Shown: in pieces, positions 30,930 to 64,000 of the stretch | How positions within the stretch are numbered: the first letter of the stretch is position 1 | Layout: every line of letters begins with the position of its first letter | NCBI GenBank assembly: GCA_001029675.1 | Contig: CP011210.1 | Location: 128,193-192,192, forward strand | Length of the DNA stretch: 64,000 nt | Direction of reading: 5' to 3' | Source: Candidatus Beckwithbacteria bacterium GW2011_GWC1_49_16 | GTDB taxonomy: Bacteria; Patescibacteriota; Microgenomatia; UBA1400; CG1-02-47-37 | Notes under the pieces: model-generated | The model's input: the letters and a program-made list of their open reading frames with translations, nothing else | What the model was told of the DNA's origin: nothing | The model's database searches: none | Made by a program: the position numbers and the translations under genes

Positions 30930-30970
<41 letters not shown>

Positions 30971-32456: not shown

Positions 32457-33119
32457 AGAATCGCTGCCTTTGTAAAATTTTGCTATATGCTGGAAACTCC
32501 GAGAATCTTGAACTACTGCCTGTTTATGTGTAATACTACACATAATGGGAAGTAAAAAAGTTACAAGTGCGGACAATCAGCAGGAAAGGCTAAAAACGAT
32601 TGGTTGGATAGTTGGTTTCACAGATGGTGATGGTTGTTTTTGTATTTCGATAAACAAAAACCACAGATTAAAACTTGGTTGGCAAGTGGTTCCTGAGTTT
32701 GTAATAACTCAAGGAGAGAAAAGCCTAGAGAGCTTAAAACTTGTTAAAAAGTTTTTTAAATGTGGAAGAATCTTTATTAATCGAAGACATGACAACCATA
32801 AGGAAGACCTTCATAGATATTGCGTGAGAAGTATAGCTGACTTAGAAGAAAAGATAATTCCTTTCTTTGAGAAAAATCAGTTAAAAACCTACAAAAGAAA
32901 ATCATTTGAGACTTGGAGTAAAGCAGTGAAGTTGATGATAAACAAAAGACTTCATTTAAGTATGAAAGGGATTAGAAAGTTAGCAGAAATGTCAGCGGAG
33001 ATAAACCAACAGAAACGACCAAAGTTTTTAGAATCCTCAGAGACTATACGCAGAAGTCCCGCTAAGCGGGATAAGATATAGTCCGATCTCATAAGCGATT
33101 ATGAGTTAACATTATTAAG
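32457..33119 (+). mobile_element. group I intron in 23S rRNA (helix 69/71 region, E. coli ~1931 site)
   Basis: Exon 1 ends ...AGTCCAAAGGT and exon 2 resumes AGCGAAGTACCTTGTCGGGTAAGTTCCGAC. The insert ends in G. It contains a LAGLIDADG ORF. Confidence 0.65.
32545..33081 (+). CDS. LAGLIDADG homing endonuclease, intron-encoded
   Basis: LAGLIDADG motif GFTDGDGCF. 178 aa, AT-rich, located inside the 23S intron. Confidence 0.85.
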   Translation: MGSKKVTSADNQQERLKTIGWIVGFTDGDGCFCISINKNHRLKLGWQVVPEFVITQGEKSLESLKLVKKFFKCGRIFINRRHDNHKEDLHRYCVRSIADLEEKIIPFFEKNQLKTYKRKSFETWSKAVKLMINKRLHLSMKGIRKLAEMSAEINQQKRPKFLESSETIRRSPAKRDKI

Positions 33120-33236
33120 AGCGAAGTACCTTGTCGGGTAAGTTCCGACGCGCACGAAAGGTGTAACGACTTGGCAACTGTCTTGACCACTGATCCGGTG
33201 AAATTGAAATGGCTGTGAAGATGCGGCCTATTGACT

Positions 33237-33267
<31 letters not shown>

Positions 33268-33908
33268 ATAACTTGACATTGGTTTATTTAAGTTGATCGT
33301 CTAGGATAGGCGGGACCCCGACTTTATGTCGGGGGCCAGTGTAATACCGCTCGTTAACTTGAGTAAATCTAACTTATGATCTCTGGAAACGGGATTAGGG
33401 ACAGTGTCTGGGAGGTAGTTTCGCTGGGGAGGTGGTTTGCTAAAAAGTACCGCAAACGCGCAAAGGTACCCTTAGCGCGGATAGAAATCGCGCTGAAAGT
33501 GTAAAGGCAAAAGGGTGCTTGACTGTGACACTTACAAGTGAAGCAGGAGCGAAAGCTGGCCTTAGTGATCCTCGAATCCGTTGTGGAACGGATCGGGCTT
33601 ATCGGATAAAAGCTACCCCGGGGATAACAGAGTAGTCGCACCCAAGCGTCCACAGCGACGGTGCGGTTCGCTACCTCGATGTCGGCTCAGGGTATCCTGG
33701 GGGTGTAGAAGCTCCCAAGGGTTGGTCTGTTCGCCCATTAAAACCCTACGTGAGCTGGGTTCAGAACGTCGCAAGACAGTTCGGTCTCTATCCGCAGTCA
33801 ACGTTGGATTCTTGAGGGAAGCTGACCTCAGTACGAGAGGACCAGGTTGGGCCAGTCCCTAGTGTGCCGGTTGTCGCATCAGCGGCACTGCCGGGTAGCT
33901 ACACTGGT

Positions 33909-33946
<38 letters not shown>

Positions 33947-34109
33947 TCCCAAGATGAGGAATCCCATTAAGATCCCTGGGAGACTACCAGGTGATAGGCA
34001 GCCGGTGTAAGTGCCGTAAGGCATTTAGCCTAGCTGTACTAATCGATCGATCGAAAATAGACCAATTTATTTTGGCTATAAAGAACGAGTATTCTCTTTA
34101 AAATAACTT

Positions 34110-49045: not shown

Positions 49046-49945
49046 GTGTCAATGTGGCAAGATTGGCCGATCAGAACTATTAGGGTAGAAAACAAGGGTT
49101 TTCCTGAAAGGTTGGGGTTGGTGACGCCAGAGGTAAAAAAGCTTTATTACCGAGGCAATTGGCATAAGAGAGATTTTAAGCACGCTTTGGCGGTGGTGGG
49201 TTCAAGAAGAATGACCAGCTACGGCAAGGGGGTGGTAGAGAAATTAATTCCGCCGCTTGCCCGGGCAGGAGTGACCATAGTTTCCGGGATGATGTACGGC
49301 GTCGACGCCTGCGCCCACCTAGCCTGCCTTGCCGCTGGCGGCAAGACGGTGGCGGTTTTGGGCAGCGGCCTTGACGTCACCGATTCAGAAGAAAGCGGTC
49401 GGCTTTATAGCCAAATTCTTCAATCGGGCGGCTTGGTGTTAAGCGAGTATGAACGCGACAGCCAACCGGCGTTGTGGACCTACCCGCAAAGAAACCGGAT
49501 CGTGGCCGGTTTGAGTGGGGCGGTATTGGTGATCGAGGGCGGGGAGAAGTCGGGGACGCTGATTACCGCCAAACTTGGTTTTAAGCAAAAAAAACCGGTG
49601 ATGGCTGTGCCCGGGCCGATTACCTCGAGCAATTCTTTAGGGGTTAACTGGTTGATCAAAAACGGCGCCGTGGCGGTGACCAGCGCAGAGGAGGTGTTGG
49701 CGGAGTTAGGGATCAAATCACACTCCCGGAGTGAGAAAGAACTCACCTCCAAGGTGGCTTTAGACTCCTTAGAGGTGGAGGGGTTAGGAAAGCGAATTCT
49801 TGCCGAGCTTAACCGTGAGCCTTTAGAAGTTGACGAGTTGGCTAGAAAACTGGGCATGGACGTTGTCAGTTTGGGTCAGAAATTATCGCTGATGGAAATT
49901 GCCGGTTTGGTCAAAGAACAAGATGGTAAGTATACTAGTAAGTGA
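49046..49945 (+). CDS. dprA: DNA processing protein DprA (Smf)
   Basis: Rossmann-like DprA core VTIVSGMMYGVDACAH...VAVLGSGLDV...YPQRNRIVAGLSGAVLVIEG. Confidence 0.85.
   Translation: MSMWQDWPIRTIRVENKGFPERLGLVTPEVKKLYYRGNWHKRDFKHALAVVGSRRMTSYGKGVVEKLIPPLARAGVTIVSGMMYGVDACAHLACLAAGGKTVAVLGSGLDVTDSEESGRLYSQILQSGGLVLSEYERDSQPALWTYPQRNRIVAGLSGAVLVIEGGEKSGTLITAKLGFKQKKPVMAVPGPITSSNSLGVNWLIKNGAVAVTSAEEVLAELGIKSHSRSEKELTSKVALDSLEVEGLGKRILAELNREPLEVDELARKLGMDVVSLGQKLSLMEIAGLVKEQDGKYTSK
49721..49756. repeat. palindromic element hybrid (variant A arm plus CACCTCCAAGGTG) inside the dprA CDS
   Basis: CACTCCCGGAGTG-agaaagaact-CACCTCCAAGGTG, translated as HSRSEKELTSKV. Confidence 0.6.
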
Positions 49946-51519
49946 TGTTGACTAAGGTACATTCTTTGGCTAGCCGGGGTTTGGAAGCGATCGAAGTCGA
50001 GGTCGAAGTCAATGTCGCCGGCCGGGGTTTTCCCGGTTTTAACATCGTCGGCCTGCCCAACAAGGCCATTGAAGAAGCCAAAGAGCGGGTGAGGACCGCC
50101 CTGGTCAATTCCGGCGTCGAGTTTCCTCAAAAAAAGATTACCGTTAACATGGCTCCGGCAGACATTCCTAAAGAAGGTTCGGGTTACGACTTGCCGATAG
50201 CGGTGGGGATTTTGGCGGCTACGGGGGATATACCTTCCTTCGCCGAGGCTCCGGAGGGTAAGCCTTCGGCTTATTTTTACGGCGAGCTGGGCTTGGACGG
50301 CAAACTGCGGCATACCCGGGGCGTGTTTTTGCTAGGGATGCTAGCCAAAGACAAAGGCGTCAACCAAGTTTTTGTCCCCAAACTGTCAGCCAACGAGGCG
50401 GCAGTAGTGTCGGGGATAAAAGTTTATCCGGTGGGGGATTTATTGAAACTGGTAAGGCACTTAAGACAAGAAAAAGTCATCCGGCCGCTCAAAACCATGC
50501 CGACGAAAGAGGTGATCAGCGAGGCGGAAGTGGAGTTTGATTTTGCCGAAGTGGCCGGCCAGGAGCAGGCCAAACGGGCCTTGGAGATTGCCGCGGCCGG
50601 GGGCCACAACGTGTTTATGGCCGGGCCGCCGGGAGCGGGTAAGACCATGTTGGCCCGGGCTTTGCCGGGGATTTTGCCGGAGCTGACCGAGGCTGAAGCT
50701 TTGGAAGTAACCAAGATTTACTCGGTGACCGGCAACATCGAGCCCGGCGGCGGTTTGATAAGAAGGCGGCCGTTTCGGACGCCGCACCATACTACATCAA
50801 GAGCCGGCCTGGTCGGCGGCGGCTCCAAGCCGATGCCAGGAGAAATTAGTTTAGCTCATCGCGGGGTTTTATTTTTGGACGAGTTTGCCGAGTACACCCG
50901 CTCAACCTTGGAAGCCTTGCGTCAGCCGATGGAAGATGGGGTGGTGTCGGTGGTTCGGGCCGCCGGCACGGTCAAATTTCCGGCCAAGTTCATGCTGGTG
51001 GCGGCTGCCAACCCTTGCCCCTGCGGCTTTTTGACTCACCCGAAAAAAGAATGTAAGTGTTCTTTGGGGCAGATCAAGCGTTACCAAAAGAGGCTTTCGG
51101 GGCCGATTCTGGACCGGATCGACCTTCACGTCAACGTGCCCTTTGTGGAGATCGAAAAACTAAGGCAGCGTCACACTCCCGGAGTGAAAGATGTTCACAC
51201 TCCGGGAGTGGAATCTTCGGAGGTGATCAGGGAACGGATAAAACTAGCCAGAAAGGCACAGGTGGTAAGATTCAGCGACGAACCCGGGCTATTTGCCAAC
51301 GCCGAGATGAGAAATAAACAGGTGAAAAAATATTGCCGGTTAAATAGCGAGGTAGAAAATTTGCTGCAGCAGGCGGCGGTGAGCTTTAACTTGTCGGCGC
51401 GAAGCTATTTTCGTTTGATCAAAGTGGCCCGAACCATTGCCGATCTTGCCGGAGAGAAAGAGATTGCCACCTCCCACATGGCCGAAGCGCTGCAGTACCG
51501 GATCAGGGAAGATAGTTGA
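49942..51519 (+). CDS. comM: Mg-chelatase-like AAA+ ATPase YifB/ComM
   Basis: N-terminal Lon-like domain, then Walker A GPPGAGKTMLA, Walker B VLFLDEF, sensor motifs. It contains an in-frame palindromic insertion. Confidence 0.85.
   Translation: MMLTKVHSLASRGLEAIEVEVEVNVAGRGFPGFNIVGLPNKAIEEAKERVRTALVNSGVEFPQKKITVNMAPADIPKEGSGYDLPIAVGILAATGDIPSFAEAPEGKPSAYFYGELGLDGKLRHTRGVFLLGMLAKDKGVNQVFVPKLSANEAAVVSGIKVYPVGDLLKLVRHLRQEKVIRPLKTMPTKEVISEAEVEFDFAEVAGQEQAKRALEIAAAGGHNVFMAGPPGAGKTMLARALPGILPELTEAEALEVTKIYSVTGNIEPGGGLIRRRPFRTPHHTTSRAGLVGGGSKPMPGEISLAHRGVLFLDEFAEYTRSTLEALRQPMEDGVVSVVRAAGTVKFPAKFMLVAAANPCPCGFLTHPKKECKCSLGQIKRYQKRLSGPILDRIDLHVNVPFVEIEKLRQRHTPGVKDVHTPGVESSEVIRERIKLARKAQVVRFSDEPGLFANAEMRNKQVKKYCRLNSEVENLLQQAAVSFNLSARSYFRLIKVARTIADLAGEKEIATSHMAEALQYRIREDS
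51174..51210. repeat. palindromic element, variant A, inside the comM CDS
   Basis: CACTCCCGGAGTG-aaagatgttca-CACTCCGGGAGTG, translated as HTPGVKDVHTPGV. Confidence 0.75.
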
Positions 51520-51554
51520 TTGTCGATCGTAGATAGTAGATAGTAGATTAAGAG

Positions 51555-51914
51555 ATGATAAATAACTTTGATAAACTAGATGCTTGGAAGAAAGCTCACG
51601 GTTTGGCATTGAAGATTTACAAATTAGCAGAAAATTTTCCACGAACAGAGAGGTTTGGTTTGGTAAGCCAGATTTGTCGGGCTGCAAGTTCGGTTCCGGC
51701 AAATATAGTCGAGGGTAACAGCAGACAAAGCAAGAAAGAATATGCTCAGTTTTTGTTTCAAGCCAAGGGTTCTTTGAGTGAAGTTCAGTATTTTTTAATT
51801 TTAGCTAGAGATTTAAAGTTTATTAGCGACCAGCAAGCTAAAGAATTGATGAATGACTGTGATGATGTGTCGAGGTTAATAGCCGGACTAATTAAATATT
51901 TACGGAAGGGCTAA
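51555..51914 (+). CDS. four-helix-bundle protein (23S rRNA intervening-sequence protein family)
   Basis: FDKLDAWKKAHGLALKIYKLAENFPRTERFGLVSQICRAASSVPANIVEG matches the family consensus. The gene is AT-rich. Confidence 0.75.
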   Translation: MINNFDKLDAWKKAHGLALKIYKLAENFPRTERFGLVSQICRAASSVPANIVEGNSRQSKKEYAQFLFQAKGSLSEVQYFLILARDLKFISDQQAKELMNDCDDVSRLIAGLIKYLRKG

Positions 51915-51956
51915 TAAATAGTCAACGATCGATGATCAACAACCTATAATCTAATT

Positions 51957-52313
51957 ATGCGTCAGCATAATGTCGCCCGCGGTAAACAAGGTGAAAATTT
52001 GGCGGTGAAGTTTTTACAAGAGAAGGGCTATCGGATTTTGGAAAGAAACTTTCGGACCCGGTTTGGCGAGGTCGATATTGTGGCTAAAGATGGTCAGGCG
52101 TTGGTGTTTGTGGAGGTTAAGACTAAAAGCAGCGATAGTTTTGGTGAGCCCTGGGAGATGGTGGATGAGCGCAAGCTGGAGCAGGTCAAGAAGATGGCCC
52201 AAGTTTATCTACAATCTAAAAACTACAATCAACAATCTATGCGCTTGCGCATCGACGTAGTCGGGGTGTGGCTTGATTCGGGTAAACTTAAGCACTGGCA
52301 GGCGGTTTATTGA
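51957..52313 (+). CDS. yraN: YraN-family (UPF0102) endonuclease
   Basis: GENLAVKFLQEKGYRILERNFRTRFGEVDIVAKDGQALVFVEVKTK. Confidence 0.8.
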   Translation: MRQHNVARGKQGENLAVKFLQEKGYRILERNFRTRFGEVDIVAKDGQALVFVEVKTKSSDSFGEPWEMVDERKLEQVKKMAQVYLQSKNYNQQSMRLRIDVVGVWLDSGKLKHWQAVY

Positions 52314-55300
52314 GGTTCCAGGCGAATAATCCACCAGTTAAACTCCAAATCATAAGGCAAAGATTTATTGATGGCGACTTTAAACCATTCTTTCTCTTTT
52401 TTGGCTAGAACATAAAGGACTTGGTTTTGGGGGTCGCCTATGGGGGTGACGTAAGTTAAGGTGTCGGCGGAGACATGAGGCGTAAAGACGGTGAATTCGG
52501 TTAGACCTGCGGGCAGAGTAGCCTTGCCGGCAGTGGCGTTGGTGGCAATCGAAGACGAAGCGGTTGCCTCCTCGGAGGTGGCTGTAGCAATCACCAAGCC
52601 TTCGGTGGTAACTTCTTTGAAACTAGCCGAGCCGGTGCTGACCAAATTTTGGGTGAGTAATTCCTCAAAGTGACCTTGGTTGGCGGTAACTTTTTCGGCG
52701 ATAAGGTTGCCGGTTACAGTCAGATTGCCGTTTATTACCACGTTGCCGGAGGCGTCCAGGGTCATCAGGCCGGCGAGTAAGTTGATGGCACCCACACCTG
52801 AAGGTTGAAGATAAAGGGTATTATCAAGGGAGGAAATGGAGTTTGAAGTTAAAAGTAGGTTGTCGTTTAGGTTTAAGCTATTGGTAACTTTAAGATCGGT
52901 GATGGTGGCTTGGCCGAGGACTGCCAGGTAGTCGGAGAAGAAACCAAAGCTAGCTTCGACCGAATCCAAGCGCAGGTTAGCCGAAGCCGAGGCTTCGATA
53001 GTTTGTAGATTGTAGATCGTAGTTTGTAAGTTTGGATCTTTGTCGGAGGTGTCTAGGTTTTCTGCAGATAAGGTTTGGTCGCGGTATTTTTGGGCTAGAT
53101 CGGCTATTTTTTCTCTCAAGCCTTCGATTTGGCCGGCTTTGATCTTGCCAGCAATAAGCTCGTCGGTAACCACTCTGTCGGCTACCAGCGTGCCTTGAAC
53201 ATCTAATGCTAATTGACTCCCCGGGGTGGCGCTTGACGACTCCCTGGGGTGGCTTGGCGCGATTACCACCGGGCCTTCAATAGTAATCGCGCCGTTGTCT
53301 GCCAGGGGGGAGATAAAGTCGGTGACCAGTTTGTCGGTTTCGACGGTAGGAGAGATGATTTTATTGGCAAACAGGTTACCTGCCACGTTGGCGGCGCCGT
53401 CGACGGCCAATTCTTTGGCCTCGATAAGGCCCGCTTTTACGTGGGCGATGGTGGCGGAAGCGTAAGCAGTTGCCCGAGTAATTAAATTACCCAGAGTGTC
53501 GGTTAACCGGTAAGAAGTCAGAGTGGCCGAGTCGGTGGCCGGGTCGGCGGCAGTGATGTCTAGCTCACCGGCATCAGTTAAGCGGATGCCCGGGTCGTAC
53601 CAACCGAGGTTAACAAAGACCATGATCCGGTCGCCGCCGTTTAACGGGTCCCAGGGCTCGAGCGCCTTGCCGATGATTTGGCCCGGCTCGGTCGCTTTCA
53701 TGGCTTTGCCGGGTTCGGAAGAGCTAGTTAAAGCGTCGCCGATCATGATAGGGGCAGAGGCGCGGGAGATTTTCACCGGCACCCGGCCGGCCAACGCCAC
53801 AGCCCGCTTGGCCGAGTCAGAGGCGGTGTCGCTAGCGCCCAGAACGAAACCAGGCTCGGTTGAGACGACGCCAAGTAACTGGAGATCATAAGGCTTGTCT
53901 GCTTTATGTAAAACGGCCTCAGTGACAACTTTTTGAGTGCCGTCGGGTTCGGTGATGTCGGTGGTGCCGACTTCGCCGATGACCACCACGTCGGCCGCGC
54001 CGATTGACGGGTCGCCGGAAACATAGTACTCGGCTACGTCAGCGGCCGTGGTATTAACCTTACCTGCAAACAGCGTGCCGTAGCCGTTGTATTCAGAAAG
54101 TAAGGTTCTGCCGGCAGAGGCGGCCCCGCCGTTGCCCGTGTCGGCACCGCCACTTGCTCCTGCTCCGAGGTTGCAGGCTCCAGAACCTCCCCCGGTACCG
54201 TTTTTACCTCCACCCCCGCCCCCACCAGCATCCAAAGCTCCGACGTCCGCACAACTGCCGCCGTTTCCACCTGTGGCGCCTGTAGCTCCACTTCCTGCAG
54301 TAGCTTGGTAAGTGCCCTCGGTGAGATTGCTACTAATAAGCCAAACTGTCCCTCCGGCACCACCACCACCACCTCCTCCTCCTCCTCCACCGCCACCTCC
54401 ACCAGAAGCACGATCACCGGACGCGCCGACTGACCCGTCAGTTCCAGCAGTGGCAGTTGAGGGATTTGAAGGAGTTTCTCCATTAGCTCTAATTGTGCTG
54501 CTGTTAGTGAGAGTGTTTGCAGAAATAACTACAATGCCGCCGCCAATACCGCCGTTTCCTCCATTAGATCCGGCACCGCCAGCGGCGGTGTTAGCGCTAG
54601 CGCTGATTGTGGCACAGGCACTTTCACCACCACCACCACCACCTCCACCACCACCACCTCCTCCACCCATGAAGAGAGTCGAAAGAGTGCTGTTGCCTCT
54701 GGCAGAGTCGGCTGATCCGGCCGTACCCTCAGCCGTCCCACCAGCTCCGTCGGGCCCGGCTCCACTACCACCATCAGCACCAGTGGTTCCGGCAGTTGAG
54801 GCCGCGCCATAAGCTCCGCCTCCGCCGCCTCCGCCCGCTTCTGCACCGCCTCCGCCACCTGCATCACCACTTAGGTATGAGCCATGCTGACCAAGATCAC
54901 CTCCTGCGCCTAATCCTCCACTACTTGAAGGGCCACCTCCAGTTGTACCGTCGCTGCCGTCTGTACCGTCATTACCATTGATCGAGCCGGTGCCGGAGCA
55001 GTTTGCTGCTCCAGTACCTCCGCTGCCACCGCTACCGCCTGTTCCTCCGGCATACCCCAGTTCGTTGCCCTCGACGGTGCCGCTATTTATGAATGTGCCG
55101 TTGGCTTTGATATAGAGGACTCCTCCTACGCCGGTTCCACTGTCCCAGGCGGAAGCAGTAAAAGTGGTCGAGGAGTTGATAGTAACATCGTTGTATTGGG
55201 GAATTCTAACTACTTGGGCTCCTGTTGATTGATAGTCGTTTTGAAGATTGGCAGTAAAGGTGATGATCCCGTTAGTTGAGTCGATGGCGTCTATCTCCAT

Positions 55301-58300
55301 AATGTCGTAGTTACCGGCACCGGTGCCGGTCATTTGGATAACGATTACATGATCGCCCACCGTATAGTTAGGCGATGAATCGCTTACCGTGACTCTGTTG
55401 GTGTAGGATGCGGCAGCAGTGATGTCTATAGCTTCGCAGTCAAAATTTGAGTCACTGTCTGGCCCGTCCGTTGTAGAGCAGTTGAATGGTGTGTTGACTT
55501 GATTGCCGGTGGCGCCGCTGGTGACCACTTCAATGTCGCCGTCACCCCCGTCGCCATAGCGGTCGTTCGTTAGGTCGTTAGTGTCAAACCTTCCCTTAAC
55601 CGTGCCGGAGGAGTTGAGGAAAAAGATCGAGGAGTTGCCGGCAACGCCGGTCGTGGTACCGCCGGCTTGGAGACGGAGAGAATCGGTGGAGTCGCCGATG
55701 ATGTTACCCGTTAAGGTAATATCACCTGAAACATCTAGTTCTTGACCTGGAGTGTTCGTGCCGATACCGACAGAGTTTACGTTATCATCGACATAAAGGG
55801 TGTTACCGTCAAAGGAGATATCGCCGTTGTTGGTGGTGCCGGTGACAATATACATATGCGTTTCGGTGTTGTCTTCGTTGGTAAAGCGGATTTGAGAGCT
55901 AGCCGAGTCGTCGTCGCCGGTAATGACTAAATTATTGGTGATGTTGTTAATGAATGAGTCGGTGCCGTCGTGATAGAAAGCCAGATCTTCTCCCACACCG
56001 ATGGTCAGGCCAGCGGTTGACCCGTCGGTGACAAGTTCTAGTTGGCCGGCATTAGTTAGGGTCATGCGGGTTGTTGCCGAAGCCGAGGCGGTAAAAATGG
56101 GACCAGAGCCTAATTGGTCTACTTGTAAAGTAGCCGCCCCGCCGGAATTGTTTTGAACCATGGTGATGCCGTTTGAAGCAGGGGCGATGGTTAAGTTAGC
56201 AGCATCAGTGGTGCCTAAGGTTAGATCGGTGCCGTCAGAGGAAAAGGTAAAGTAATCACCGGTGTCGTTATCTGGTTGGAGGAAAATGTCCGAGGCAGAG
56301 ATGAAAGTCAGGTTGCCGGTGTTATTGTCGATAAACGAGTCGGTGCCGTCGTGATAAAGGTCCAAGTCGTTGCCGGTGCCCAGATAAAGGTGTTTGCTGT
56401 CTAAAATGTTGATGTTGCCGGCCACAATCAAAGAGGTGCCGGTGGCGGCCGGGTCAAGGTAGTAAGTGTCGTCGGCCAGGTCAGTATAGCGCTGGTAGTA
56501 GGCGTAGCCGTTGGTGTCGAGACGAAACTTGGTCACTCCCGAAGCCGAGGCGGTCAGTAAGTCGCCTGTGCCTAACTGGTCGATGACCACCAAGGCGTCG
56601 CCGCCGGCATTTGATTGGACCAAAAAGTGTTCGTTAGACTCCAAAGCCAGTTTTAATGAGCCGGCGTTTTGCGTCCAGGTGGCAAAGGTGGTGGCAGCGT
56701 CTTTGAAAAAGATGTCGGCGCCGTCGGCGTCAAGGATAATATCGCCGGAACTGTCCAAAGTCATGTCGCCGGTCGAGTTTAAAGTCAGGGTGCCGGTGGG
56801 GGTAATATCCAGGTTGCCGTCAGAGGTAATGCTGTCGCCGTTGACGGCCAAGGTGCCGGCCAGAGTGATGGAGTCGTCAAGATTAATGGTAACGGTGTCG
56901 GTGGCCGAGTCAACCGTGGTGATATTGGTGCCGCCGGCAATGGTTAAAGTGTTTCCCTGGGTGATGGCTTGGCCGCCTCCCGAGTCACCGGCGGCGGTAA
57001 AGAGCGTTCCGGAAACTTGGGCAACGGGAATTGTTCCTGTTGAACTAATCACTTCTGTGCCGTTGACCCTAAGAACCGAATCCCAACCAGATCCTACATT
57101 AATCGCGTATTCGGTAGCGCCTCCGGCCGAAGTCAAAGCGCCGATATTTAAGCCGTAAAGATTGCCTGCCGCCGGGCCGGAGGTGGTGGGGGCGACAATA
57201 TTAAGACCGCTCATGGTACCGCCGGTAACAATGGCGCCGGAAGCAGGCACCAGTACCCGGACGCCGTCGGCGTTGACCGTTCCCGTCGTCTGGGTGATAA
57301 CCGGCAGGGTAACATTTAGTCCCCGCCAATTAATCGTGCCGGCGGCTGTGTCCTGGGTTAAAGCGGCCGCGGCCGAGAGGTTGTAACCGGTGTAAGTAGT
57401 GGTGTTGGCGGCTGACTGGGTAAGAGCCGGGGTTTGGACGTTAGTGCCGGTAACATCCAAATCAGTCGCCCCGGTTAAGTTGCTGTTGAGGTTTAAGGAT
57501 AGACCGGTGATGTCGCCGCCTGATTGGGTGGTAGCGCCGGCAAAATCGGCGTTGATCAGGGTGCCGTTAGTCCATTCGGTTTCCAGAACATAATCGGTGA
57601 AAGTGCCGGTTGTTCCCGGAGTGAAGCTTAGTTGTCCAGAGGAATTTACCTGGAACAGATCGCCGTTGCCGACAGTGAAGAGGGATGCGGGGGTTGAATC
57701 ACCTACACCCACGTTGCCGTTTTCGTCGAGCGTCATTCTGATCCCAGAAGATCCAGCGTTCATGGTGGTGAAGTAGAGTTCTCCCGAGTTTTCACTAGTA
57801 CCTTCAACGAGGGTGTATATGGAAGCAATTGTGTTGTTTGCGCTACCCGCATGGAAACTGATCATGCCGATCCTTTTACCGTCAGCAATGTTGTTGCTAG
57901 TTTTAGAAAACTCAAGATATGAGCCGTTGAGGCTATCCGAGGTGTCCACTAGTGTTATCGCCGGTTCCGAACTTGAGTTGATTCCGGGAGTGGTGGTACG
58001 AAGTCCAAGCTGACCAGCGCCATCGAGGGTCATTTTAACGGCCCCTGCGTCGCCGCTGGCGTTGTCGGTGAAAAAGTCCATTCTGGAGGAAGGTCTGGTA
58101 TTACCGAAATTTCCTTCTGCTAAAACTCTAATGTAGCCTGCTGTATTTGAAGTTAAAGTAGAGTCGTTGGAATAGAAACTTAGCGTTCCGATTACTTCCC
58201 CTGATAAGACTGTTATGTCGTTGCGGCTAAGCGTGAGTGTGGGTCCTCCGGTACTTTCTATCTCCAGGTTGCTTATAGGGTCGGCTGTACCTATGCCAAC

Positions 58301-59950
58301 TCGATCGGTGCTGGCGTCAATAGAAAGAGTATTGGAATCAAAATTCAAGGCATCGGCGGCGGCGTTTAAGGTGACGTCGACGGTTTGGTTAGAGAGGTCA
58401 ATTACGCCCGTGTTAATAGCCAAGTTGCCGGTGGTAGAGCCACCTAGCGTTAAGGTTTGGGCATTGGTGGTGCCCAGGTTGCCCAAGCCGGTCAGAAAAG
58501 CAGCGTTGTTGCCGGAACTGGCGGAGATAGTGGCGGTGGGGGTGCCGGAGTTGACGTTGATGAAGCCGAATTTGGCAGAGGCGGTGGCGGTGTTGCCGAT
58601 CAAAACATCCAGAGTGTCATTTATGGGGGATAAAGCGCCCTCGCTGAGGCGCCAGTAGACAGTGCCGCCGCCGGTATCATCGCTGCCGCAGGTTAAAATG
58701 CCGGAACCATCGGTTTCGAGTGCTGTGCAGGTAATAAAATCGGTTAGGATAATGTCGTCAACGGCGTTTAAGGTAATATCAGAGCCAGCGCCGGTGGTTT
58801 GCAGGGTGAGAGAAGAACCGTCGATGGTGATGGCGTCGCCGCCATCACCTAAAGTGACCGCGCCATCAGCGTCTAAAGCCCCGGCAATATAGGTGGCTCC
58901 GGTCCGGCCAACCGTAAACACCTCTGTTTCTGAGGCGCCGGAGGAGAGGTTTAACAGGTCTCCGGTGGCGGTGTCGTTGCCGACGTAGCCGGAAATTAAG
59001 TGGCCGGAGGTGAGAGAAGCGTTGGTAGCGCGGATAAAGTTAGTCGAGGTGGTAGAGCCGGTGAGCAGCAGTTGGCCGGTGCCGTCAGGGGCGATGGTGA
59101 TGGCGCCGTTGGTGCCGGTGTCGGTGACGATCGATAAGGCTTGGCCTTTGATGGCAAAGGTGCCCGAGGTGGAGTAGACCTGGGGGTTGGCGGCGGCAAT
59201 GACCAGGTCGCCCTCTTGGGTTAAGACCGGGATTTGGTCGGCCGAGGCCGAGGCCGAAGGAGGGAAGCCCCGCAAAGTCTCGGCGTTTAAGGCATAGGCG
59301 ACGGTGGCGATTTGCTGGCGCGGGGTGGCCTCAGGGTCGGTCTCGACGGTGACTCCCAGCCAGAGGTCGGCGTTTTCGGTAAAGACACTGGAGGCGATAG
59401 AGGTTTCAGTGCCCAAAAGGACCGAGAAGATGCCGTCTTGGTCGGGGTCGAGGTAGCGCTGCTCCTCCCAAAGTTTAGCCGAGCCGGAGGCGGTTTCGTC
59501 GTCGTAAATGATAAACCTAAAGTCGGTGGGCACGGTGATGGGGTTGTCGGAAGTGTCGGTCAGCCGGGCCTGAAATGACAGGTAGCGGTTGGGAGTAGTG
59601 GGGCTGGGAGCTTGGGGGTAGGCTTGGCCGAGGAAGACCTCCTGGAAAATTTGTTTGTAGCCAAAGATGCCTAAAGCCACGGCAAACAGGACCAAAAGGG
59701 ATAGGTTGAGGTAGCTGGCGATGCTTAAAGAGTGGTATTTTTGGTAGAGTTTGCCAAAGCTGATACCTTTTGACCTAGTTTGTATGAGTTTTCTAGAGGG
59801 GGGGTGAGGGTAGTGGTGTTTGGCCCAGGCAGAAAAGCGGTTGAGTGAAGAAATTTTGCGTTTAATGGTGGCTGATGGAACCTTTTGGGCCGCCAAATGC
59901 TTTTTATAGCGGGAAATGAGCTTTTTACTGGTAAGAGTAGTCAGGTCCAT
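52307..59950 (-). CDS. giant membrane-anchored surface protein (2,547 aa)
   Basis: A single uninterrupted ORF. The N-terminal 50 aa forms a cytoplasmic SAM-like segment. One TM helix (LSIASYLNLSLLVLFAVALGIFGY). Then a Thr/Gly/Ser-rich repetitive beta-rich ectodomain with three poly-Gly tracts. Confidence 0.8.
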   Translation of the reverse strand: MDLTTLTSKKLISRYKKHLAAQKVPSATIKRKISSLNRFSAWAKHHYPHPPSRKLIQTRSKGISFGKLYQKYHSLSIASYLNLSLLVLFAVALGIFGYKQIFQEVFLGQAYPQAPSPTTPNRYLSFQARLTDTSDNPITVPTDFRFIIYDDETASGSAKLWEEQRYLDPDQDGIFSVLLGTETSIASSVFTENADLWLGVTVETDPEATPRQQIATVAYALNAETLRGFPPSASASADQIPVLTQEGDLVIAAANPQVYSTSGTFAIKGQALSIVTDTGTNGAITIAPDGTGQLLLTGSTTSTNFIRATNASLTSGHLISGYVGNDTATGDLLNLSSGASETEVFTVGRTGATYIAGALDADGAVTLGDGGDAITIDGSSLTLQTTGAGSDITLNAVDDIILTDFITCTALETDGSGILTCGSDDTGGGTVYWRLSEGALSPINDTLDVLIGNTATASAKFGFINVNSGTPTATISASSGNNAAFLTGLGNLGTTNAQTLTLGGSTTGNLAINTGVIDLSNQTVDVTLNAAADALNFDSNTLSIDASTDRVGIGTADPISNLEIESTGGPTLTLSRNDITVLSGEVIGTLSFYSNDSTLTSNTAGYIRVLAEGNFGNTRPSSRMDFFTDNASGDAGAVKMTLDGAGQLGLRTTTPGINSSSEPAITLVDTSDSLNGSYLEFSKTSNNIADGKRIGMISFHAGSANNTIASIYTLVEGTSENSGELYFTTMNAGSSGIRMTLDENGNVGVGDSTPASLFTVGNGDLFQVNSSGQLSFTPGTTGTFTDYVLETEWTNGTLINADFAGATTQSGGDITGLSLNLNSNLTGATDLDVTGTNVQTPALTQSAANTTTYTGYNLSAAAALTQDTAAGTINWRGLNVTLPVITQTTGTVNADGVRVLVPASGAIVTGGTMSGLNIVAPTTSGPAAGNLYGLNIGALTSAGGATEYAINVGSGWDSVLRVNGTEVISSTGTIPVAQVSGTLFTAAGDSGGGQAITQGNTLTIAGGTNITTVDSATDTVTINLDDSITLAGTLAVNGDSITSDGNLDITPTGTLTLNSTGDMTLDSSGDIILDADGADIFFKDAATTFATWTQNAGSLKLALESNEHFLVQSNAGGDALVVIDQLGTGDLLTASASGVTKFRLDTNGYAYYQRYTDLADDTYYLDPAATGTSLIVAGNINILDSKHLYLGTGNDLDLYHDGTDSFIDNNTGNLTFISASDIFLQPDNDTGDYFTFSSDGTDLTLGTTDAANLTIAPASNGITMVQNNSGGAATLQVDQLGSGPIFTASASATTRMTLTNAGQLELVTDGSTAGLTIGVGEDLAFYHDGTDSFINNITNNLVITGDDDSASSQIRFTNEDNTETHMYIVTGTTNNGDISFDGNTLYVDDNVNSVGIGTNTPGQELDVSGDITLTGNIIGDSTDSLRLQAGGTTTGVAGNSSIFFLNSSGTVKGRFDTNDLTNDRYGDGGDGDIEVVTSGATGNQVNTPFNCSTTDGPDSDSNFDCEAIDITAAASYTNRVTVSDSSPNYTVGDHVIVIQMTGTGAGNYDIMEIDAIDSTNGIITFTANLQNDYQSTGAQVVRIPQYNDVTINSSTTFTASAWDSGTGVGGVLYIKANGTFINSGTVEGNELGYAGGTGGSGGSGGTGAANCSGTGSINGNDGTDGSDGTTGGGPSSSGGLGAGGDLGQHGSYLSGDAGGGGGAEAGGGGGGGAYGAASTAGTTGADGGSGAGPDGAGGTAEGTAGSADSARGNSTLSTLFMGGGGGGGGGGGGGGESACATISASANTAAGGAGSNGGNGGIGGGIVVISANTLTNSSTIRANGETPSNPSTATAGTDGSVGASGDRASGGGGGGGGGGGGGGGAGGTVWLISSNLTEGTYQATAGSGATGATGGNGGSCADVGALDAGGGGGGGKNGTGGGSGACNLGAGASGGADTGNGGAASAGRTLLSEYNGYGTLFAGKVNTTAADVAEYYVSGDPSIGAADVVVIGEVGTTDITEPDGTQKVVTEAVLHKADKPYDLQLLGVVSTEPGFVLGASDTASDSAKRAVALAGRVPVKISRASAPIMIGDALTSSSEPGKAMKATEPGQIIGKALEPWDPLNGGDRIMVFVNLGWYDPGIRLTDAGELDITAADPATDSATLTSYRLTDTLGNLITRATAYASATIAHVKAGLIEAKELAVDGAANVAGNLFANKIISPTVETDKLVTDFISPLADNGAITIEGPVVIAPSHPRESSSATPGSQLALDVQGTLVADRVVTDELIAGKIKAGQIEGLREKIADLAQKYRDQTLSAENLDTSDKDPNLQTTIYNLQTIEASASANLRLDSVEASFGFFSDYLAVLGQATITDLKVTNSLNLNDNLLLTSNSISSLDNTLYLQPSGVGAINLLAGLMTLDASGNVVINGNLTVTGNLIAEKVTANQGHFEELLTQNLVSTGSASFKEVTTEGLVIATATSEEATASSSIATNATAGKATLPAGLTEFTVFTPHVSADTLTYVTPIGDPQNQVLYVLAKKEKEWFKVAINKSLPYDLEFNWWIIRLEPQ

Positions 59951-60332
59951 AGTCAGATTGTTTCTTGGGGTGGGTTAGCGGTCAGGACTAACAAGTGATA
60001 ATAAATAAAAATCGGCATTTTAGCTTGATTTACAGCTTTAATTAAAGAAATCAGCGGCTCAAAAAACCGGCCTAACAGGGGTGAAAACATAATCGGTGAA
60101 AAGGGGCTATAGGTTGGGTTTGATACAAAAAAGCGGGGTAGGGCAGGTAAAAGCAGTTTTAGCGCTATAATTGTGTTATAGGTTATGTTTTTTGTAGAAA
60201 GTTTACCAAGTTTATGCGGAGAATTGGACAGATAATTAGCGTCTTGGCTATAGAAAATTTTTAGTTTCATAAGTGTAAAAGTTAAGGTGGTTATTAAAAT
60301 CAACGAATGTGAAAGTTTATTGTTATCTGTTA

Positions 60333-60872
60333 TTATGCTTGTTTTTGAGCCCATAGTAGATATGATTTTATGTCTGAAAGATAGTTTTTTATAGTCGACG
60401 GCGACAAGCTTTGATTTTCTAAATAATTTTTATATAGACCCATAATATCTTTCACTTTTGTGGCGGGGACTGATGAAAGTTTGTCGGTGGGGTCGGCTTC
60501 GGCGCGGCCGGTGGCAGCTAAAAATTCACCAAAACGTTTTAGCGACGAAAGGTGGCGGTTGGCGGTGGCGGCGGGGTATGAGTTTTGTAAAAATTGTTGG
60601 TAAGCGAGGCAAACGGCGGCGGTGATGTGACCGGCATTGATTATCTTTTCCTGGAGAGACTGACTAAGCCAGGTTAAGAAGCGGTTGACGTCGGACAGAT
60701 AGTTGGCGATTGACGAGGCGGAGAGGTTTTTTTGGCCTTCAAGGAAGCTTTTAAAGGCTTCAGCCAGGGGTTGGAGAGAGCCAGAGAGAGTCAGGATAGA
60801 GGCCGGAAGCGGCTGGGACAGTGATTGGGGCAGGGTTTTGGGGGTATGGTTGAGGTTAGATAAGGCAGGCAT
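60333..60872 (-). CDS. protein with two tandem integrase-N-terminal SAM-like (core-binding) domains, no catalytic domain
   Basis: LSASSIANYLSDVNRFLTWL..ANRHLSSLKRFGEFL and LSPSTIKNYLSDIKSYLLWA resemble the tyrosine-recombinase N-terminal domain. Confidence 0.5.
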   Translation of the reverse strand: MPALSNLNHTPKTLPQSLSQPLPASILTLSGSLQPLAEAFKSFLEGQKNLSASSIANYLSDVNRFLTWLSQSLQEKIINAGHITAAVCLAYQQFLQNSYPAATANRHLSSLKRFGEFLAATGRAEADPTDKLSSVPATKVKDIMGLYKNYLENQSLSPSTIKNYLSDIKSYLLWAQKQA

Positions 60873-61250
60873 AGGTTTAGCCTGCGTAGGCAGCCGGACA
60901 GACGCTGCCTACGCAGGCAGTAATAAAAAAGCTAGTAAGGCAGGCTTAGGGCCCAGCTAAGGGTTGCTAGGGCGGTAAGTAAGCTAATTAGGGCGGTAAA
61001 CTCCACCACCAGTTGAGCTGCCCTGTTGCGGAAAATGGCTTTGAGGTTTAACTTAATCGCTCTGGGCGGAGTCAGGATGATCGGCAGGGTGGGGAAAGCG
61101 GTGACGGTGGACATAATTTGCCTTTCTTTTCTCTACCTCTGTAATTAGATTAAATTACAAGAGATTATTTGATAACTTCTTGTTCTATACTAAGAAGAAA
61201 AAGAGCCTGTAAACAACAGACCAAAAAAGCAACTTTTTTACAGGCTTAAA

Positions 61251-61278
61251 TTTCTAATTTCTAATTTCTAATTGCTAA
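61251..61278. repeat. tandem repeat (TTCTAAT)x3
   Basis: tttctaatttctaatttctaattgctaa, in an AT-rich intergenic region. Confidence 0.7.
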
Positions 61279-61364
61279 AAATTATTTCATGTGGTTTTCA
61301 TGGGCAGTTGTTTGACTACATCAAAATATATAATTGTAATATTAACAATGTCGGCATCTGGCTT

Positions 61365-61406
61365 GTTTACGGATTACGGTTTACGGATTACGGTTTACGG
61401 ATTAAA
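61365..61406. repeat. 3 x 14-nt tandem repeat GTTTACGGATTACG immediately upstream of a promoter-like TTGACA
   Basis: Three direct copies with an internal 7-nt TACGGAT/TACGGTT alternation, followed by TTGACA at 61409-61414. Confidence 0.8.
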
Positions 61407-61466
61407 GCTTGACAGCCAAGATAGCGCAGTGTTATGGTGTAGTTAACTACAATTAAACAATGCGCT

Positions 61467-62240
61467 ATGCGAGAATTGAAGCTCAAACTACTTTTTTCCC
61501 TTGCCAGCGAGCAGGATTTTTTCCGCCTTAGCGAAGGTTATGATTACCGGCCTTACCGGCATCTTTACAGGCTTTTGAGCGAGTTTAGAGCCGGTTCGGT
61601 CAGGGACGCGGCAGTCAGGCTGGTTAAGGCAGGAATGATGGATAAAATCGTCAGAAACAGGCAGCCTTTGTTTCGCTTGACCAGCCTGGGTAGAGACCAG
61701 TTGTTGAAGAGTTTACCAAGATTCAAGGGGCAAAGAAAAGTCTGGGATAGGATCTGGCGGATAGTCATTTTTAAAGGGGTGGGAAGAGACGCCAGGCTGG
61801 CAGCCAGAAGGCTTATTAGCTTGGGGTACAAAAGGGTGGCCTCGGGGGTGTATTTGACGCCGCTGTCGGTGTCAGAGGAGACCAAGGAGCTAATTTTAGC
61901 TAAAACTTGGACAAAAGAGGCGTTTGTGATCGCTTCCCGTCGGTTTATTATCGGGGACGACTTTGAACTGGCTAAAAATTTGTGGGACCTGGATAAGAAA
62001 GCTCAAGAATATGCTGATTTTGTCAGTAGGGCCGAAACTCTGCTAAAAAAATCCAGGCGTAGTTTGATAGCCCTACAGCAGTCCAAAGGCGGCTTTAAAG
62101 ATGTCTTTGATGACTATTTTAGGTTGAATTTGACCGACCCGGGTTTGCCCAAGAAACTGCTGCCGCCGGATTGGCAAGAAGAGAAGGCCAGAGAGGTGTT
62201 TTTGCGCTTAGTGGAGCTGGCTAAAACCGCAAAAATCTAG
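61467..62240 (+). CDS. putative PaaX-like transcriptional regulator
   Basis: The N-terminal wHTH-like region and overall length resemble the PaaX family. Low confidence. Confidence 0.35.
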   Translation: MRELKLKLLFSLASEQDFFRLSEGYDYRPYRHLYRLLSEFRAGSVRDAAVRLVKAGMMDKIVRNRQPLFRLTSLGRDQLLKSLPRFKGQRKVWDRIWRIVIFKGVGRDARLAARRLISLGYKRVASGVYLTPLSVSEETKELILAKTWTKEAFVIASRRFIIGDDFELAKNLWDLDKKAQEYADFVSRAETLLKKSRRSLIALQQSKGGFKDVFDDYFRLNLTDPGLPKKLLPPDWQEEKAREVFLRLVELAKTAKI

Positions 62241-62244: not shown

Positions 62245-63375
62245 TCAAGATTGATATCTTTTGATATCTTTTGAATAGGTTCTGATGAGCCAGGCAATAA
62301 GGAATGTAGCCAAGAAGGTGAGACCGATGGTTATGAAGTGCGGGCGGGTCAAAGCCAGGTACAAAAGAATCAAGTCGGCCAGCCATAAAGGAATGAGGCT
62401 GGGGTTGGGCTGGCGTTTTCTTAAAAGATAAATCTGCCACAGTAGTAGCAGGATAATGATCCAGGGAAGGTAGAAGATGAAAGCGGCTCTTGCCGGGGCT
62501 AAAGGAAAGGCCTGGAGGATTTCCGGAAGAGTTGGCAGGCTCGGCCGGGGCAAAAAGGGCAGGCCGGGGAGGGTGATTTGGGGTAGGGGTGAGGGTAAAG
62601 AGATGACGATTGGGGGATAGGCCTGGCTTATTTCTAGGGTAAAAGGGGGCAGGGTAGCGGTGTTTCCTGGCGTATCAGACGAGGAAACGGTGACGGTGTA
62701 GCTGCCTGGAGGCAGAGCGTAGGGTGGGGCGAGGTTGAAGGAGCCGTCGGCGGCAACTAAGGTAGAAAAATTGACGCTTTTTGGGCCGACTAAAGAAATG
62801 GTGAGGGTAGCGTTGGCTTCGGACTGCCCCGCAAAACCCGGCTGGCGCTGGCTGGTAGTGAAGGTTAGGCCGGAAGGAATGGTGGAGTGGTCGAGTGACG
62901 ACAGGTTGGTGTCGTGTTCGGCTACCTGGCTGACCAGGATCAAGGGAGCGGTGACATCGATGGTAAAAACCCAGGTGGCCGAGTCGCGGCTAAGGGTGTT
63001 ACTGCCTATGGCTTTAATCATCCAGGTGTGCTGGCCTTCGGTTAACGCCGAGAGGGCCTGGGCGGCGATGGTGGTGTACGATTGGGGGATGTGGTCGGTG
63101 TTTTTTTTGCCGTCGAGCCAGAGTTGGTAGTGGGTGACAGAGGTTTCCCCCAAGGAGGGGTCGAAAATGAAGTTGGGGGCGCGGGTAGAGATGGTGGAGC
63201 CGTTTTCAGGCGAGATTAAGACAGGAATATCAGGCGGGTTAGTTTGGGGAACGGTGGCGGTGACGCTGGCCGAGCCGGATTGGGGGTTTTCCACGGCGAG
63301 AGCCGGAGAGAAATAGACGATGGCCGCGGCAGCAGCCATGATTACCCCCGTGGTGGTTTTACTCGACCAACTCAT
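62245..63375 (-). CDS. secreted/anchored surface protein with Ig-like beta domains and C-terminal TM helices
   Basis: Signal peptide MSWSSKTTTGVIMAAAAAIVYFSPALA. Thr/Ser-rich beta segments. A Pro-rich linker (LPGLPFLPRPSLPTLPEIL) followed by two hydrophobic helices. Confidence 0.5.
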   Translation of the reverse strand: MSWSSKTTTGVIMAAAAAIVYFSPALAVENPQSGSASVTATVPQTNPPDIPVLISPENGSTISTRAPNFIFDPSLGETSVTHYQLWLDGKKNTDHIPQSYTTIAAQALSALTEGQHTWMIKAIGSNTLSRDSATWVFTIDVTAPLILVSQVAEHDTNLSSLDHSTIPSGLTFTTSQRQPGFAGQSEANATLTISLVGPKSVNFSTLVAADGSFNLAPPYALPPGSYTVTVSSSDTPGNTATLPPFTLEISQAYPPIVISLPSPLPQITLPGLPFLPRPSLPTLPEILQAFPLAPARAAFIFYLPWIIILLLLWQIYLLRKRQPNPSLIPLWLADLILLYLALTRPHFITIGLTFLATFLIAWLIRTYSKDIKRYQS

Positions 63376-64000
63376 AGTAGGTGTTTTTTCCTTTACCCTT
63401 TCGGATAATTAACTTTAACCTGATGAGTCGGTTAAAATCCAGCGCCCGGGTAGCTTTAGCTCGTTTTACCAGTCTGGCATAGTCTTTATCGGTAATAAAC
63501 AGGTGGTTAGTCAGGTAATCAAGAATTTTCTGATGATGCAGTTCTAACCTGCTGTCGGGCGTTAAGTTGATTTGGGGCAGCAGTTTTTGGACTCTCAAGA
63601 GTTCATCGATAATGCCGGCAGTAAAGTATTCCAGCCAGCCGGTAAAGTCGATTTTGTCTTTGAGATAGTAGAAATCGCCTTTTTCGCCAACAATGTCAAA
63701 ATATTCGCTGACGTTTTGGTTGTAGTAGTTTTCAAAGCTGAATAAGTGAAAGGTGTTTAAACCTAAACTTGCCAGTAAGGCTTTGGTGGTGATTCTGGCG
63801 GTTCGGCCGTTGCCGTCCATAAAAGGATGAATCAGGACAATTTGTTTGTGGAAAATACCGGCGATGATTAAAGGGTCGGCGGCTGCTTGGTTTTTATTGA
63901 CAAAGGCGATTAGGTTTTTAACCAACGGTTTGACGTCGTTGGCGTCCGGCGGCAGAAAGACTACCTGGCCGGTTTTAGGGTTGTTAACCGTTACCGGCAG
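63359..64000 (-). CDS. Fic family protein, N-terminus beyond the window end
   Basis: Fic motif HPFMDGNGRTARIT and C-terminal wHTH (KGKGKNTYYELVE). The frame stays open to the window edge. Confidence 0.75.
   Translation of the reverse strand: MPVTVNNPKTGQVVFLPPDANDVKPLVKNLIAFVNKNQAAADPLIIAGIFHKQIVLIHPFMDGNGRTARITTKALLASLGLNTFHLFSFENYYNQNVSEYFDIVGEKGDFYYLKDKIDFTGWLEYFTAGIIDELLRVQKLLPQINLTPDSRLELHHQKILDYLTNHLFITDKDYARLVKRAKATRALDFNRLIRLKLIIRKGKGKNTYYELVE

Follow-up and report, generated by a model that had tools for sequence, protein, structure and literature searches.

A core-binding domain divided between two genes at the cytoplasmic end of a giant surface protein in Candidatus Beckwithbacteria

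Candidate phyla radiation (CPR) bacteria live attached to host cells. How the ultra-small CPR/Patescibacteria sense this attachment and respond to it has yet to be answered, and hardly any of their giant surface proteins have been characterised. Here we analyse a locus in a stretch of 64,000 nucleotides (nt) from Candidatus Beckwithbacteria bacterium GW2011_GWC1_49_16 (contig CP011210.1, positions 128,193 to 192,192; hereafter the window, with positions counted from its first letter). In this locus, the gene of a giant surface protein of 2,547 amino acids (aa) is preceded by that of a 179-aa protein related to the N-terminal, core-binding (CB, or SAM-like) domain of tyrosine recombinases. A preliminary description, made from the sequence without database searches, had drawn attention to this pair.

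The giant gene, its partner and the core-binding domain between them

Both genes lie on the same strand (Table 1). The giant open reading frame (ORF) encodes, from its N- to its C-terminus, the second half of a CB domain (CB2), a transmembrane (TM) helix and an ectodomain of about 2,450 aa. The ORF is uninterrupted and its sole hydropathy peak (Kyte-Doolittle, 19-residue window, maximum 2.19) falls at residues 77-98, in agreement with the one TM segment and the large ectodomain proposed in the preliminary description. The 76 residues that precede this segment contain 17 Lys and Arg against one Asp or Glu, with an isoelectric point (pI) of 11. A single hydrophobic segment after strongly basic residues is consistent with a signal-anchor that keeps the N-terminus inside and exposes some 2,450 residues on the outside.

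The 179-aa protein, which is predicted to be soluble, matches Phage_int_SAM_1 (PF02899) with an E-value (E) of 9.8e-18 and 64.7 bits (cut-off 22.3). In NCBIfam it matches XerD and XerC best, in part and at their N-termini (E 4e-13 and 1.5e-12); these two models are covered at positions 2-96 only, with 47-49 bits against cut-offs of 330-335. Following some 33 unstructured residues, the protein consists of one complete CB domain (CB1, residues ~34-120) and half of a second one (residues ~140-177, profile positions 4-35), that is, one and a half copies where two tandem copies had initially been described. The N-terminus of the giant (residues 4-45) covers profile positions 41-81 only. Thus, its earlier assignment as SAM-like holds for the second half of a domain but not for a whole one, and the giant alone stays below the cut-off of PF02899, with 13.6 bits when scanned at full length and 19.8-21.4 bits for its N-terminal fragments; the similarity is significant for the 179-aa protein by itself and for the giant only when joined to its partner. 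Taken separately, the CB2 halves score 23.3 bits (profile 4-35) and 21.4 bits (profile 41-81), whereas joined in silico they give one match over profile positions 4-81 of 83, with 50.9 bits and an E-value of 1.9e-13. Complementary profile halves and a full-length joined match indicate that one CB domain is split across the two genes. The break point is the loop between the second and third helices (B and C) of CB2.

Pfam and NCBIfam scans found no recombinase catalytic domain (PF00589) in the 179-aa ORF, in the ORF of the spacer between the two genes or in the giant, and Pfam found no tyrosine-recombinase catalytic domain in the two CB-bearing ORFs or in nine neighbouring ORFs. The 179-aa ORF lies 382 nt upstream of the giant gene and, as the preliminary description had it, lacks a catalytic domain. 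Judged from its sequence, the protein is no recombinase, and nothing suggests that it rearranges DNA.

AlphaFold2, run on an in-silico fusion of the two proteins, predicted two four-helix bundles, one at positions 34-120 and the other at 140-177 plus 188-225, with a predicted local distance difference test (pLDDT) of 85-96. In the 179-aa part the modelled helices span residues 34-45, 52-73, 85-98, 101-120, 140-153 and 158-177; those of CB2 that derive from the giant span fusion positions 188-200 and 205-225 (pLDDT 85-95), and the TM helix is modelled at 257-280. Integrase N-terminal domains (5vfz, 5hxy and 3lys) are among the Foldseek matches of the N-terminal model. According to the fusion model the halves are compatible, and the association of two separate chains is beyond what this model covers. 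The pI is 10.9 for the CB2-half segment of the giant and 10.1 for the whole two-CB module.

The spacer has a G+C content of 35%, in line with the AT-rich putative promoter region of the preliminary description, but there is more to it than a promoter, since a 133-codon open frame (59953-60354) and three DNA blocks conserved in relatives lie within it. This frame opens at the stop codon of the CB gene or close to it and, at the other end, stops 2 nt short of the ATG of the giant or overlaps it, and the three abutting ORFs (179 aa, 133 codons and giant) lie in three different frames. An open frame crosses the spacer in the window and in the related loci L001 and L002 (dinucleotide-shuffle P = 0.001, 0.014 and 0.02, respectively); it might act as a 'relay ORF' that passes ribosomes to the start codon of the giant. 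The spacers of L086, L088 and L090 have stops in all frames. We rejected the spacer ORF as a conserved protein because it has no Pfam match, its similarity is confined to DNA-conserved patches and the frame is closed in these last three loci. Within the Beckwithbacteria clade the spacers are mostly unalignable apart from the three conserved blocks, and a 1-nt difference of the window from its relatives shifts the frame just after the first half-domain. A sigma-54-type reading of the conserved TGGCA...TGC block was discarded, the spacing being wrong by eye in the alignment. An Rfam scan of 59700-61500 reported only noise, with no intron or other RNA family even at E<=10, and neither the giant nor the two shorter ORFs (179-aa and spacer) gave a match to an intein or split-intein domain (PF14890, PF01079, PF07591). 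Inverted repeats are only short or local, and none bracket the spacer or the upstream region.

The giant is composed of 14% Gly, 13% Thr, 10% Ala and 9% Ser, and the body of its ectodomain is repetitive and rich in Thr, Gly, Ser and Asn. Five poly-Gly runs (5, 7, 14, 15 and 7 residues) were counted, the two longest coded by (GGT)n triplet repeats. The membrane-proximal ectodomain (residues ~111-360) is the most conserved part of the family described below; a beta-sandwich is modelled at residues ~124-214 (pLDDT 82-92), and its fold matches are generic Ig/macroglobulin-like. Residues ~1971-2133 were modelled with a pLDDT of 84-96, and their top Foldseek matches are to the C-terminal autochaperone of phage phi29 gp12, 3gqh (E 9e-4, target-normalised TM-score (TMt) 0.53) and 3suc (E 1.7e-3), with tailspike and pyocin-fibre fragments further down the same list. 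Peptidase_G2 (PF11962) and Peptidase_S74 (PF13884) are on record for homologues; the window giant has no Pfam match there. Sequence searches of PHROGs and the PDB with the giant returned only linkers of single-chain variable fragments (scFv), which match the Gly runs. Residues ~2467-2543 end a C-terminal module common to the HTH_17/MerR-headed CPR proteins P0065, P0070 and P0080. In P0176, a 70% identical relative, a Laminin_G_3 lectin domain stands at the site of the Gly-rich region of the window. This swap, together with the differing domains of homologues, indicates that the outer part is modular and variable, as expected of a binding fibre. As modelled, the ectodomain resembles in its build a phage tail fibre or appendage.

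The same population is represented in three further assemblies, 99.98-100% identical to the window, and the last 560 aa of the giant are 100% identical to A3J22_03260 (Candidatus Beckwithbacteria RIFCSPLOWO2_02_FULL_49). In these three assemblies, runs of N fall exactly in the Gly-rich region (residues ~1748-1805, ~1763-1785 and ~1925-1967), and the lengths of the poly-Gly tracts are therefore uncertain. The possibility that other assemblies would break the giant ORF was not borne out insofar as they contain no frameshifts, only these gaps; however, the open frame across the gap is kept in two of the three and not in the third (L083). Two nearly identical assemblies with an open frame across the gap indicate that the giant ORF is no artefact. 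The same split sequence is present in three assemblies.

Table 1. Features of the locus and its surroundings (window positions)
Positions	Strand	Feature	Basis or remark
49046-52313	plus	DprA, ComM, 23S_rRNA_IVP four-helix protein (51555-51914), YraN/UPF0102	convergent with the giant gene
52307-59950	minus	Giant ORF, 2,547 codons without interruption	ORF list and translation
52322-52552	minus	C-terminal beta-sandwich (predicted), giant residues ~2467-2543	AlphaFold2 pLDDT 81-94
53552-54040	minus	phi29 gp12-like C-terminal autochaperone fold (predicted; Peptidase_G2 intramolecular chaperone (IMC) type), giant residues ~1971-2133	
54071-55033	minus	Gly-rich region, giant residues ~1640-1960	(GGT)n-encoded poly-Gly runs
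58871-59620	minus	Conserved membrane-proximal ectodomain, giant residues ~111-360	'AYP..PNRYLSFQ.RLT..'; beta-sandwich at start
59657-59722	minus	TM helix (predicted), giant residues 77-98, N-terminus inside	hydropathy and basic flank
59810-59941	minus	Helices C-D (second half) of split CB2, giant residues 4-47	
59951-60332	minus	A+T-rich spacer, 382 nt	breaks CB2
~59951-60032		Conserved block 3	about 80 nt before the giant's ATG
~60259-60281		Conserved block 2	CTTTTACACTTATGAAA..; given as CTTTACACnnATGAAAA in the clade alignment
~60322-60333		Conserved block 1	ATAACAGATAAC; directly after the first half-domain, kept whatever the frame
60333-60872	minus	179-aa ORF (179 codons)	Pfam and NCBIfam scans
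60336-60461	minus	First half of CB2, residues 138-179 of the 179-aa protein	
60513-60773	minus	CB1, residues 34-120 of the 179-aa protein	
60880-60918		Perfect hairpin, 15-nt arms, GCCTGCGTAGGCAGC	just upstream of the 179-aa ORF, between it and the small ORF
60932-61114	minus	60-aa ORF, C-terminal hydrophobic helix	opens the apparent operon
61467-62240	plus	PaaX-like regulator, divergent	PaaX_C E 5e-12; neighbour in 18 related loci
62245-63375	minus	Big_13 (Ig-like) protein, 376 aa	conserved neighbour, 32 related loci
63359-63925	minus	Fic/DOC-domain ORF, running toward the window end beside the Big_13 gene	full gene 343 aa in L083

Fused and split relatives

In a scan of one genome per species, relatives of the giant were found in 209 genomes, and we inspected the best 80 loci together with two fetched separately. 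With representatives taken as one per 50%-identity cluster, an exhaustive phmmer search with giant residues 1-360 returned 471 of them at E<=1e-30; at E<=1e-10 their number was 1,758. All members are of CPR/Microgenomates type, and the full-length ones measure 1,500-6,346 aa. When the fusion was used as query, many CPR proteins spanned about 90% of it in a single chain (P0001 with 60% identity, P0011, P0029 and others), in the order CB1, CB2, TM helix and conserved ectodomain. In total, a single ORF encodes the CB domains, the TM helix and the ectodomain at some 46-49 of the 80 loci. The preliminary description, which had placed SAM-like modules without a catalytic domain beside and on a giant surface protein, is upheld by these loci. 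By comparison of sequences, the combination of a catalytic-domain-less CB module, a TM helix and a giant fibre is a conserved architecture and not a product of chance. In about nine of the best 80 plus two loci a single CB domain is fused to the giant, and the number of CB domains across the family ranges from one to at least two. The fused relatives P0001 and L004 are 60-71% identical, and several relatives carry the NCBI name 'site-specific integrase', a label that public annotation often gives to this family and that is wrong and misleads mobile-element surveys.

A split at the identical loop was found at 22 loci besides the window, each with the complementary half in the upstream ORF, and the split form makes up about a quarter of the family. 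At these loci the upstream ORF ends with '...TIKNYLSD.R.FL.W...', and every downstream giant begins with its own Met, followed by '...Y...L.....S..T.KRK.SSL.KF..WA'. Moreover, eight other split pairs joined in silico each gave one full-length PF02899 match of 32-63 bits, and about 33 of the 150 top family representatives start with a half-domain. The stop-to-start gaps range from -47, -11, 0, 3, 10 and 15 up to 1,010 nt; abutting or overlapping stop and start codons are typical of translationally coupled genes. Long spacers elsewhere hold whole genes in the same orientation, encoding NYN-domain proteins (L011, L068) or 23S_rRNA_IVP four-helix-bundle proteins (L042, L060, L082), which indicates that the split site takes up insertions like any ordinary intergenic region.

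Split and fused forms group by clade in a neighbour-joining tree built from the conserved ectodomain. The two states occur in at least two separate clades; that of the window contains both, for L004 is fused and the window, L001, L002/L005 and L006 are split. This implies that fission or re-fusion at this loop has occurred at least twice. A split that is recurrent and conserved speaks against a one-off assembly error or recent decay, and suggests a tolerated, probably functional two-piece form. A literature search, limited in its reach, found no published description of this architecture, and the family is apparently undescribed. Taken singly, the parts are familiar; their combination, together with the recurrent, precisely placed split of a compact four-helix domain between adjacent genes, is not.

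Two other observations were made on the relatives. One or two inteins (PF14890, PF01079) lie inside the ectodomain of P0001, P0004, P0005, P0009, P0015 and P0044, in P0001 in the context 'FTVDRTGQ[C...HN]TYISG'; the equivalent site of the window allele (~58895-58915, giant residues ~346-352) has none. Inteins within a surface-fibre gene are unusual. In addition, genomes that carry this CPR-specific gene (L006, L008, L009 and many others) bear titles such as 'uncultured Pseudomonadales', 'uncultured Gammaproteobacteria', 'Bathyarchaeia' and 'Nitrospinota', and are probably mislabelled or contaminated bins.

Known counterparts and a possible role of the divided module

Tyrosine recombinases of the XerC/XerD type resemble the module in their significant profile match (PF02899) and in the predicted four-helix bundles; however, here the catalytic domain is missing and the tandem CB domains, one of them split between genes, are borne on a TM helix with a giant ectodomain. 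FliZ of Escherichia coli is a stand-alone regulator with an integrase CB-like fold that binds DNA without recombination (PMC3367168). FliZ is small and soluble, whereas the giant is a membrane fibre, and the match to the FliZ model TIGR03823 (17.7 bits, E 0.0021, against an equivalog cut-off of 159.3) is too low for membership of that family. In the regulators ToxR, CadC and TcpP, an N-terminal cytoplasmic DNA-binding domain is followed by one TM helix and an extracytoplasmic domain, and the domain order and topology of the giant (hydropathy, charge) match this layout. In contrast to their OmpR-type winged helix and small sensor, the giant combines a CB four-helix bundle with a 2,450-aa fibre, and the absence of any Trans_reg_C or winged-helix match in the giant or the 179-aa protein (Pfam) sets both apart from the ToxR type.

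On the outer side, the autochaperone-like fold predicted at residues ~1971-2133 recalls the pre-neck appendage gp12 of phage phi29, relatives carry PF11962 or PF13884, and the repetitive Thr/Gly/Ser/Asn-rich body is like that of phage tail fibres and tailspikes with intramolecular chaperones (Peptidase_G2, Peptidase_S74). Unlike these fibres, the giant is cellular and membrane-anchored, has a cytoplasmic domain and continues for ~410 residues past the autochaperone-like domain. Finally, P0065, P0070 and P0080 bear two N-terminal MerR/HTH_17 domains (Pfam) and then a hydrophobic segment that is TM-like by eye. These sister proteins have the same C-terminal ectodomain module, an apparent single-pass layout and two cytoplasmic domains of DNA-binding type, but they are unsplit, their DNA-binding fold is unrelated and they measure ~900-1,000 aa against 2,547. 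To judge from these sequences, the same cytoplasmic position has been filled by recruiting a DNA-binding fold unrelated to CB.

We consider it slightly more likely than not that this locus specifies a giant surface fibre to which a cytoplasmic module in two pieces, probably a DNA binder, is tethered. The locus would be the two-piece version of a widespread CPR (Microgenomates-type) protein, its gene split in the B-C loop of CB2. The 179-aa protein would give CB1 and helices A-B of CB2, and the giant helices C-D, and the two polypeptides would reassemble the CB2 bundle by fragment complementation. The sequences and the model suggest that the two halves probably must join as proteins. Completion of CB2 would dock the 179-aa protein on the cytoplasmic tail of the fibre and restore the two-CB module; this basic module would bind DNA, a step less certain than the reassembly, and once bound would link the host-contact fibre to the chromosome or to transcription. 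DNA binding, which we propose by analogy and with less confidence than docking, is favoured because the CB fold binds DNA in recombinases and FliZ, because the module is basic (pI 10.1) and because the sister proteins bear two MerR/HTH_17 domains in its place.

A bolder extension, which we regard as speculative and rather doubtful, is that giant host-contact fibres of CPR bacteria are wired directly to DNA by a module at their inner end that is recombinase-derived or, in the sister proteins, of MerR/excisionase type, attachment or tension altering the action of the module and the two-piece link being detachable or adjustable. If so, contact of the fibre would regulate genes or tether DNA at the contact site, and the module would be deliberately two-piece in about a quarter of lineages. 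The family is experimentally tractable: two unrelated DNA-binding folds occur in the same position, a compact domain of ~85 residues is repeatedly split at one loop, and DNA binding by the small cytoplasmic module could be assayed after its expression and reconstitution, with no need to culture the organism. Protein engineers may also take an interest in a four-helix domain that is split by nature.

Several points weigh against this proposal. The evidence comes throughout from metagenome assemblies, and both DNA binding and the reassembly of the halves rest on inference. The input to AlphaFold2 was an artificial fusion, with an alignment that includes fused homologues, and an intact CB2 was therefore expected. 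Foldseek, queried with a multi-domain N-terminal model, matched integrases only weakly (E 0.035-0.15). In the window the halves are not adjacent but separated by 382 nt, and the two proteins need not be expressed equally. L074 and L080 begin with a half-domain, and no upstream partner was seen within 4 kb. Finally, the CB domains could instead be protein-protein modules.

This last alternative is the main rival as to function. Under it the architecture is the same, but the CB modules would serve in oligomerisation or protein contacts, clustering or anchoring trimeric fibres or recruiting a partner, and the split would yield a detachable adaptor. We hold this to be possible, although distinctly less probable than a DNA-binding role. 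In its favour, neither a target DNA site nor a regulated gene can be made out, CB domains differ in number across the family, and the fibre is probably trimeric, given its phi29 gp12-like autochaperone, which would cluster the cytoplasmic domains anyway. However, the module is strongly basic, and a genuine DNA-binding fold (MerR/HTH_17, in two copies) stands at the same position in the sister proteins. Moreover, to our knowledge the CB fold binds DNA in every characterised context, that is, in recombinases and in FliZ.

The other three explanations concern the split itself or the control of the gene, and we rank them lower. The split could reflect decay after an insertion broke the gene; the 179-aa ORF would then be no more than a dead remnant, and translation of the giant would begin at an internal Met and leave its half-domain without function. 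The unbroken state does exist in the same clade, as L004 and P0001, the closest fused relatives, show, the spacer contains hairpin-type insertions and, in other clades, selfish-looking NYN and 23S_rRNA_IVP genes, and the 1-nt difference of the window shifts the frame just after the first half-domain. We nevertheless find decay unlikely, for both halves are intact with conserved motifs at 22 other loci in several clades, some with stop and start codons that abut or overlap as in translationally coupled genes, each joined pair tested scores as a full domain, and the same split sequence recurs in three assemblies.

Still harder to sustain is a removal or bypass of the spacer by an intron, trans-splicing, an intein-like element or programmed frameshifts, which would yield a single fused polypeptide. 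It would account for three abutting ORFs in three frames, for the open spacer frame in the window, L001 and L002 and for the conserved blocks at both spacer ends, and the genome does have an intron-like insert in its 23S rRNA gene (see below). Nevertheless, the scans described above detected neither an intron, even at E<=10, nor a Hint/intein signal, and the inteins of relatives sit elsewhere, in the ectodomain. In addition, the gaps vary from an overlap to 1 kb, some of them with whole genes, every downstream ORF starts with its own Met, and three spacers (L086, L088, L090) have stops in all frames. Least credible of all is phase variation, in which the SAM-like proteins would cooperate with a recombinase at an invertible promoter of the giant gene: CB domains normally come with recombinases, and phase variation commonly acts on surface proteins, but the signatures for which the preliminary description proposed a search are missing, with no inverted repeats around the spacer or upstream region, no catalytic domain in the two CB ORFs or nine neighbours (Pfam) and no simple repeats in the gene other than in-frame (GGT)n, and most relatives carry the CB domains on the surface protein itself.

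Surroundings of the locus

The 60-aa ORF that opens the apparent operon has no Pfam match, and equivalents of 62 and 70 aa occupy the same position in L001 and L002. Tandem repeats lie between the divergent PaaX-like gene and the operon of the small ORF, the CB gene and the giant gene (GTTTACGGATTACG three times and AATTTCT four times, at 61365-61406 and 61249-61278, respectively), and these repeats could be an operator. Among the related loci, the upstream neighbours of the family mostly encode secreted or surface proteins, namely a family with weak likeness to WxL-interacting proteins (47 loci), a Big_13 protein (32 loci, the window among them) and a Big_1 protein, beside the divergent PaaX-like regulator (18 loci, again with the window). 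Secreted neighbours of the Ig-like or WxL-interacting-like kind favour a fibre-like ectodomain.

Besides the perfect hairpin of the window (Table 1), a related palindrome interrupts the CB gene in L001 (~5495-5520), and a hairpin CCGGAGTG...CACTCCGG is common to the spacers of L001 and L002. From their sequences, these hairpins resemble palindromic mobile elements of small size. Downstream of the giant gene, beyond the DprA, ComM and YraN genes, three N_methyl pseudopilin genes follow outside the window (L083 14968-16653). By its gene content, with DprA, ComM and pseudopilins, the neighbourhood of this locus is of competence type.

Farther away, the 23S rRNA gene (30454-34064, plus strand) measures 3,611 nt against a model of 2,925 nt. 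The extra sequence contains a 178-aa ORF (32545-33081) with a LAGLIDADG-type motif (GFTDGDGCF). An Rfam scan of the insert at gathering thresholds reported no intron; from its sequence, the insert looks like an intron with a homing endonuclease, and such intron-like inserts are typical of CPR rRNA genes.

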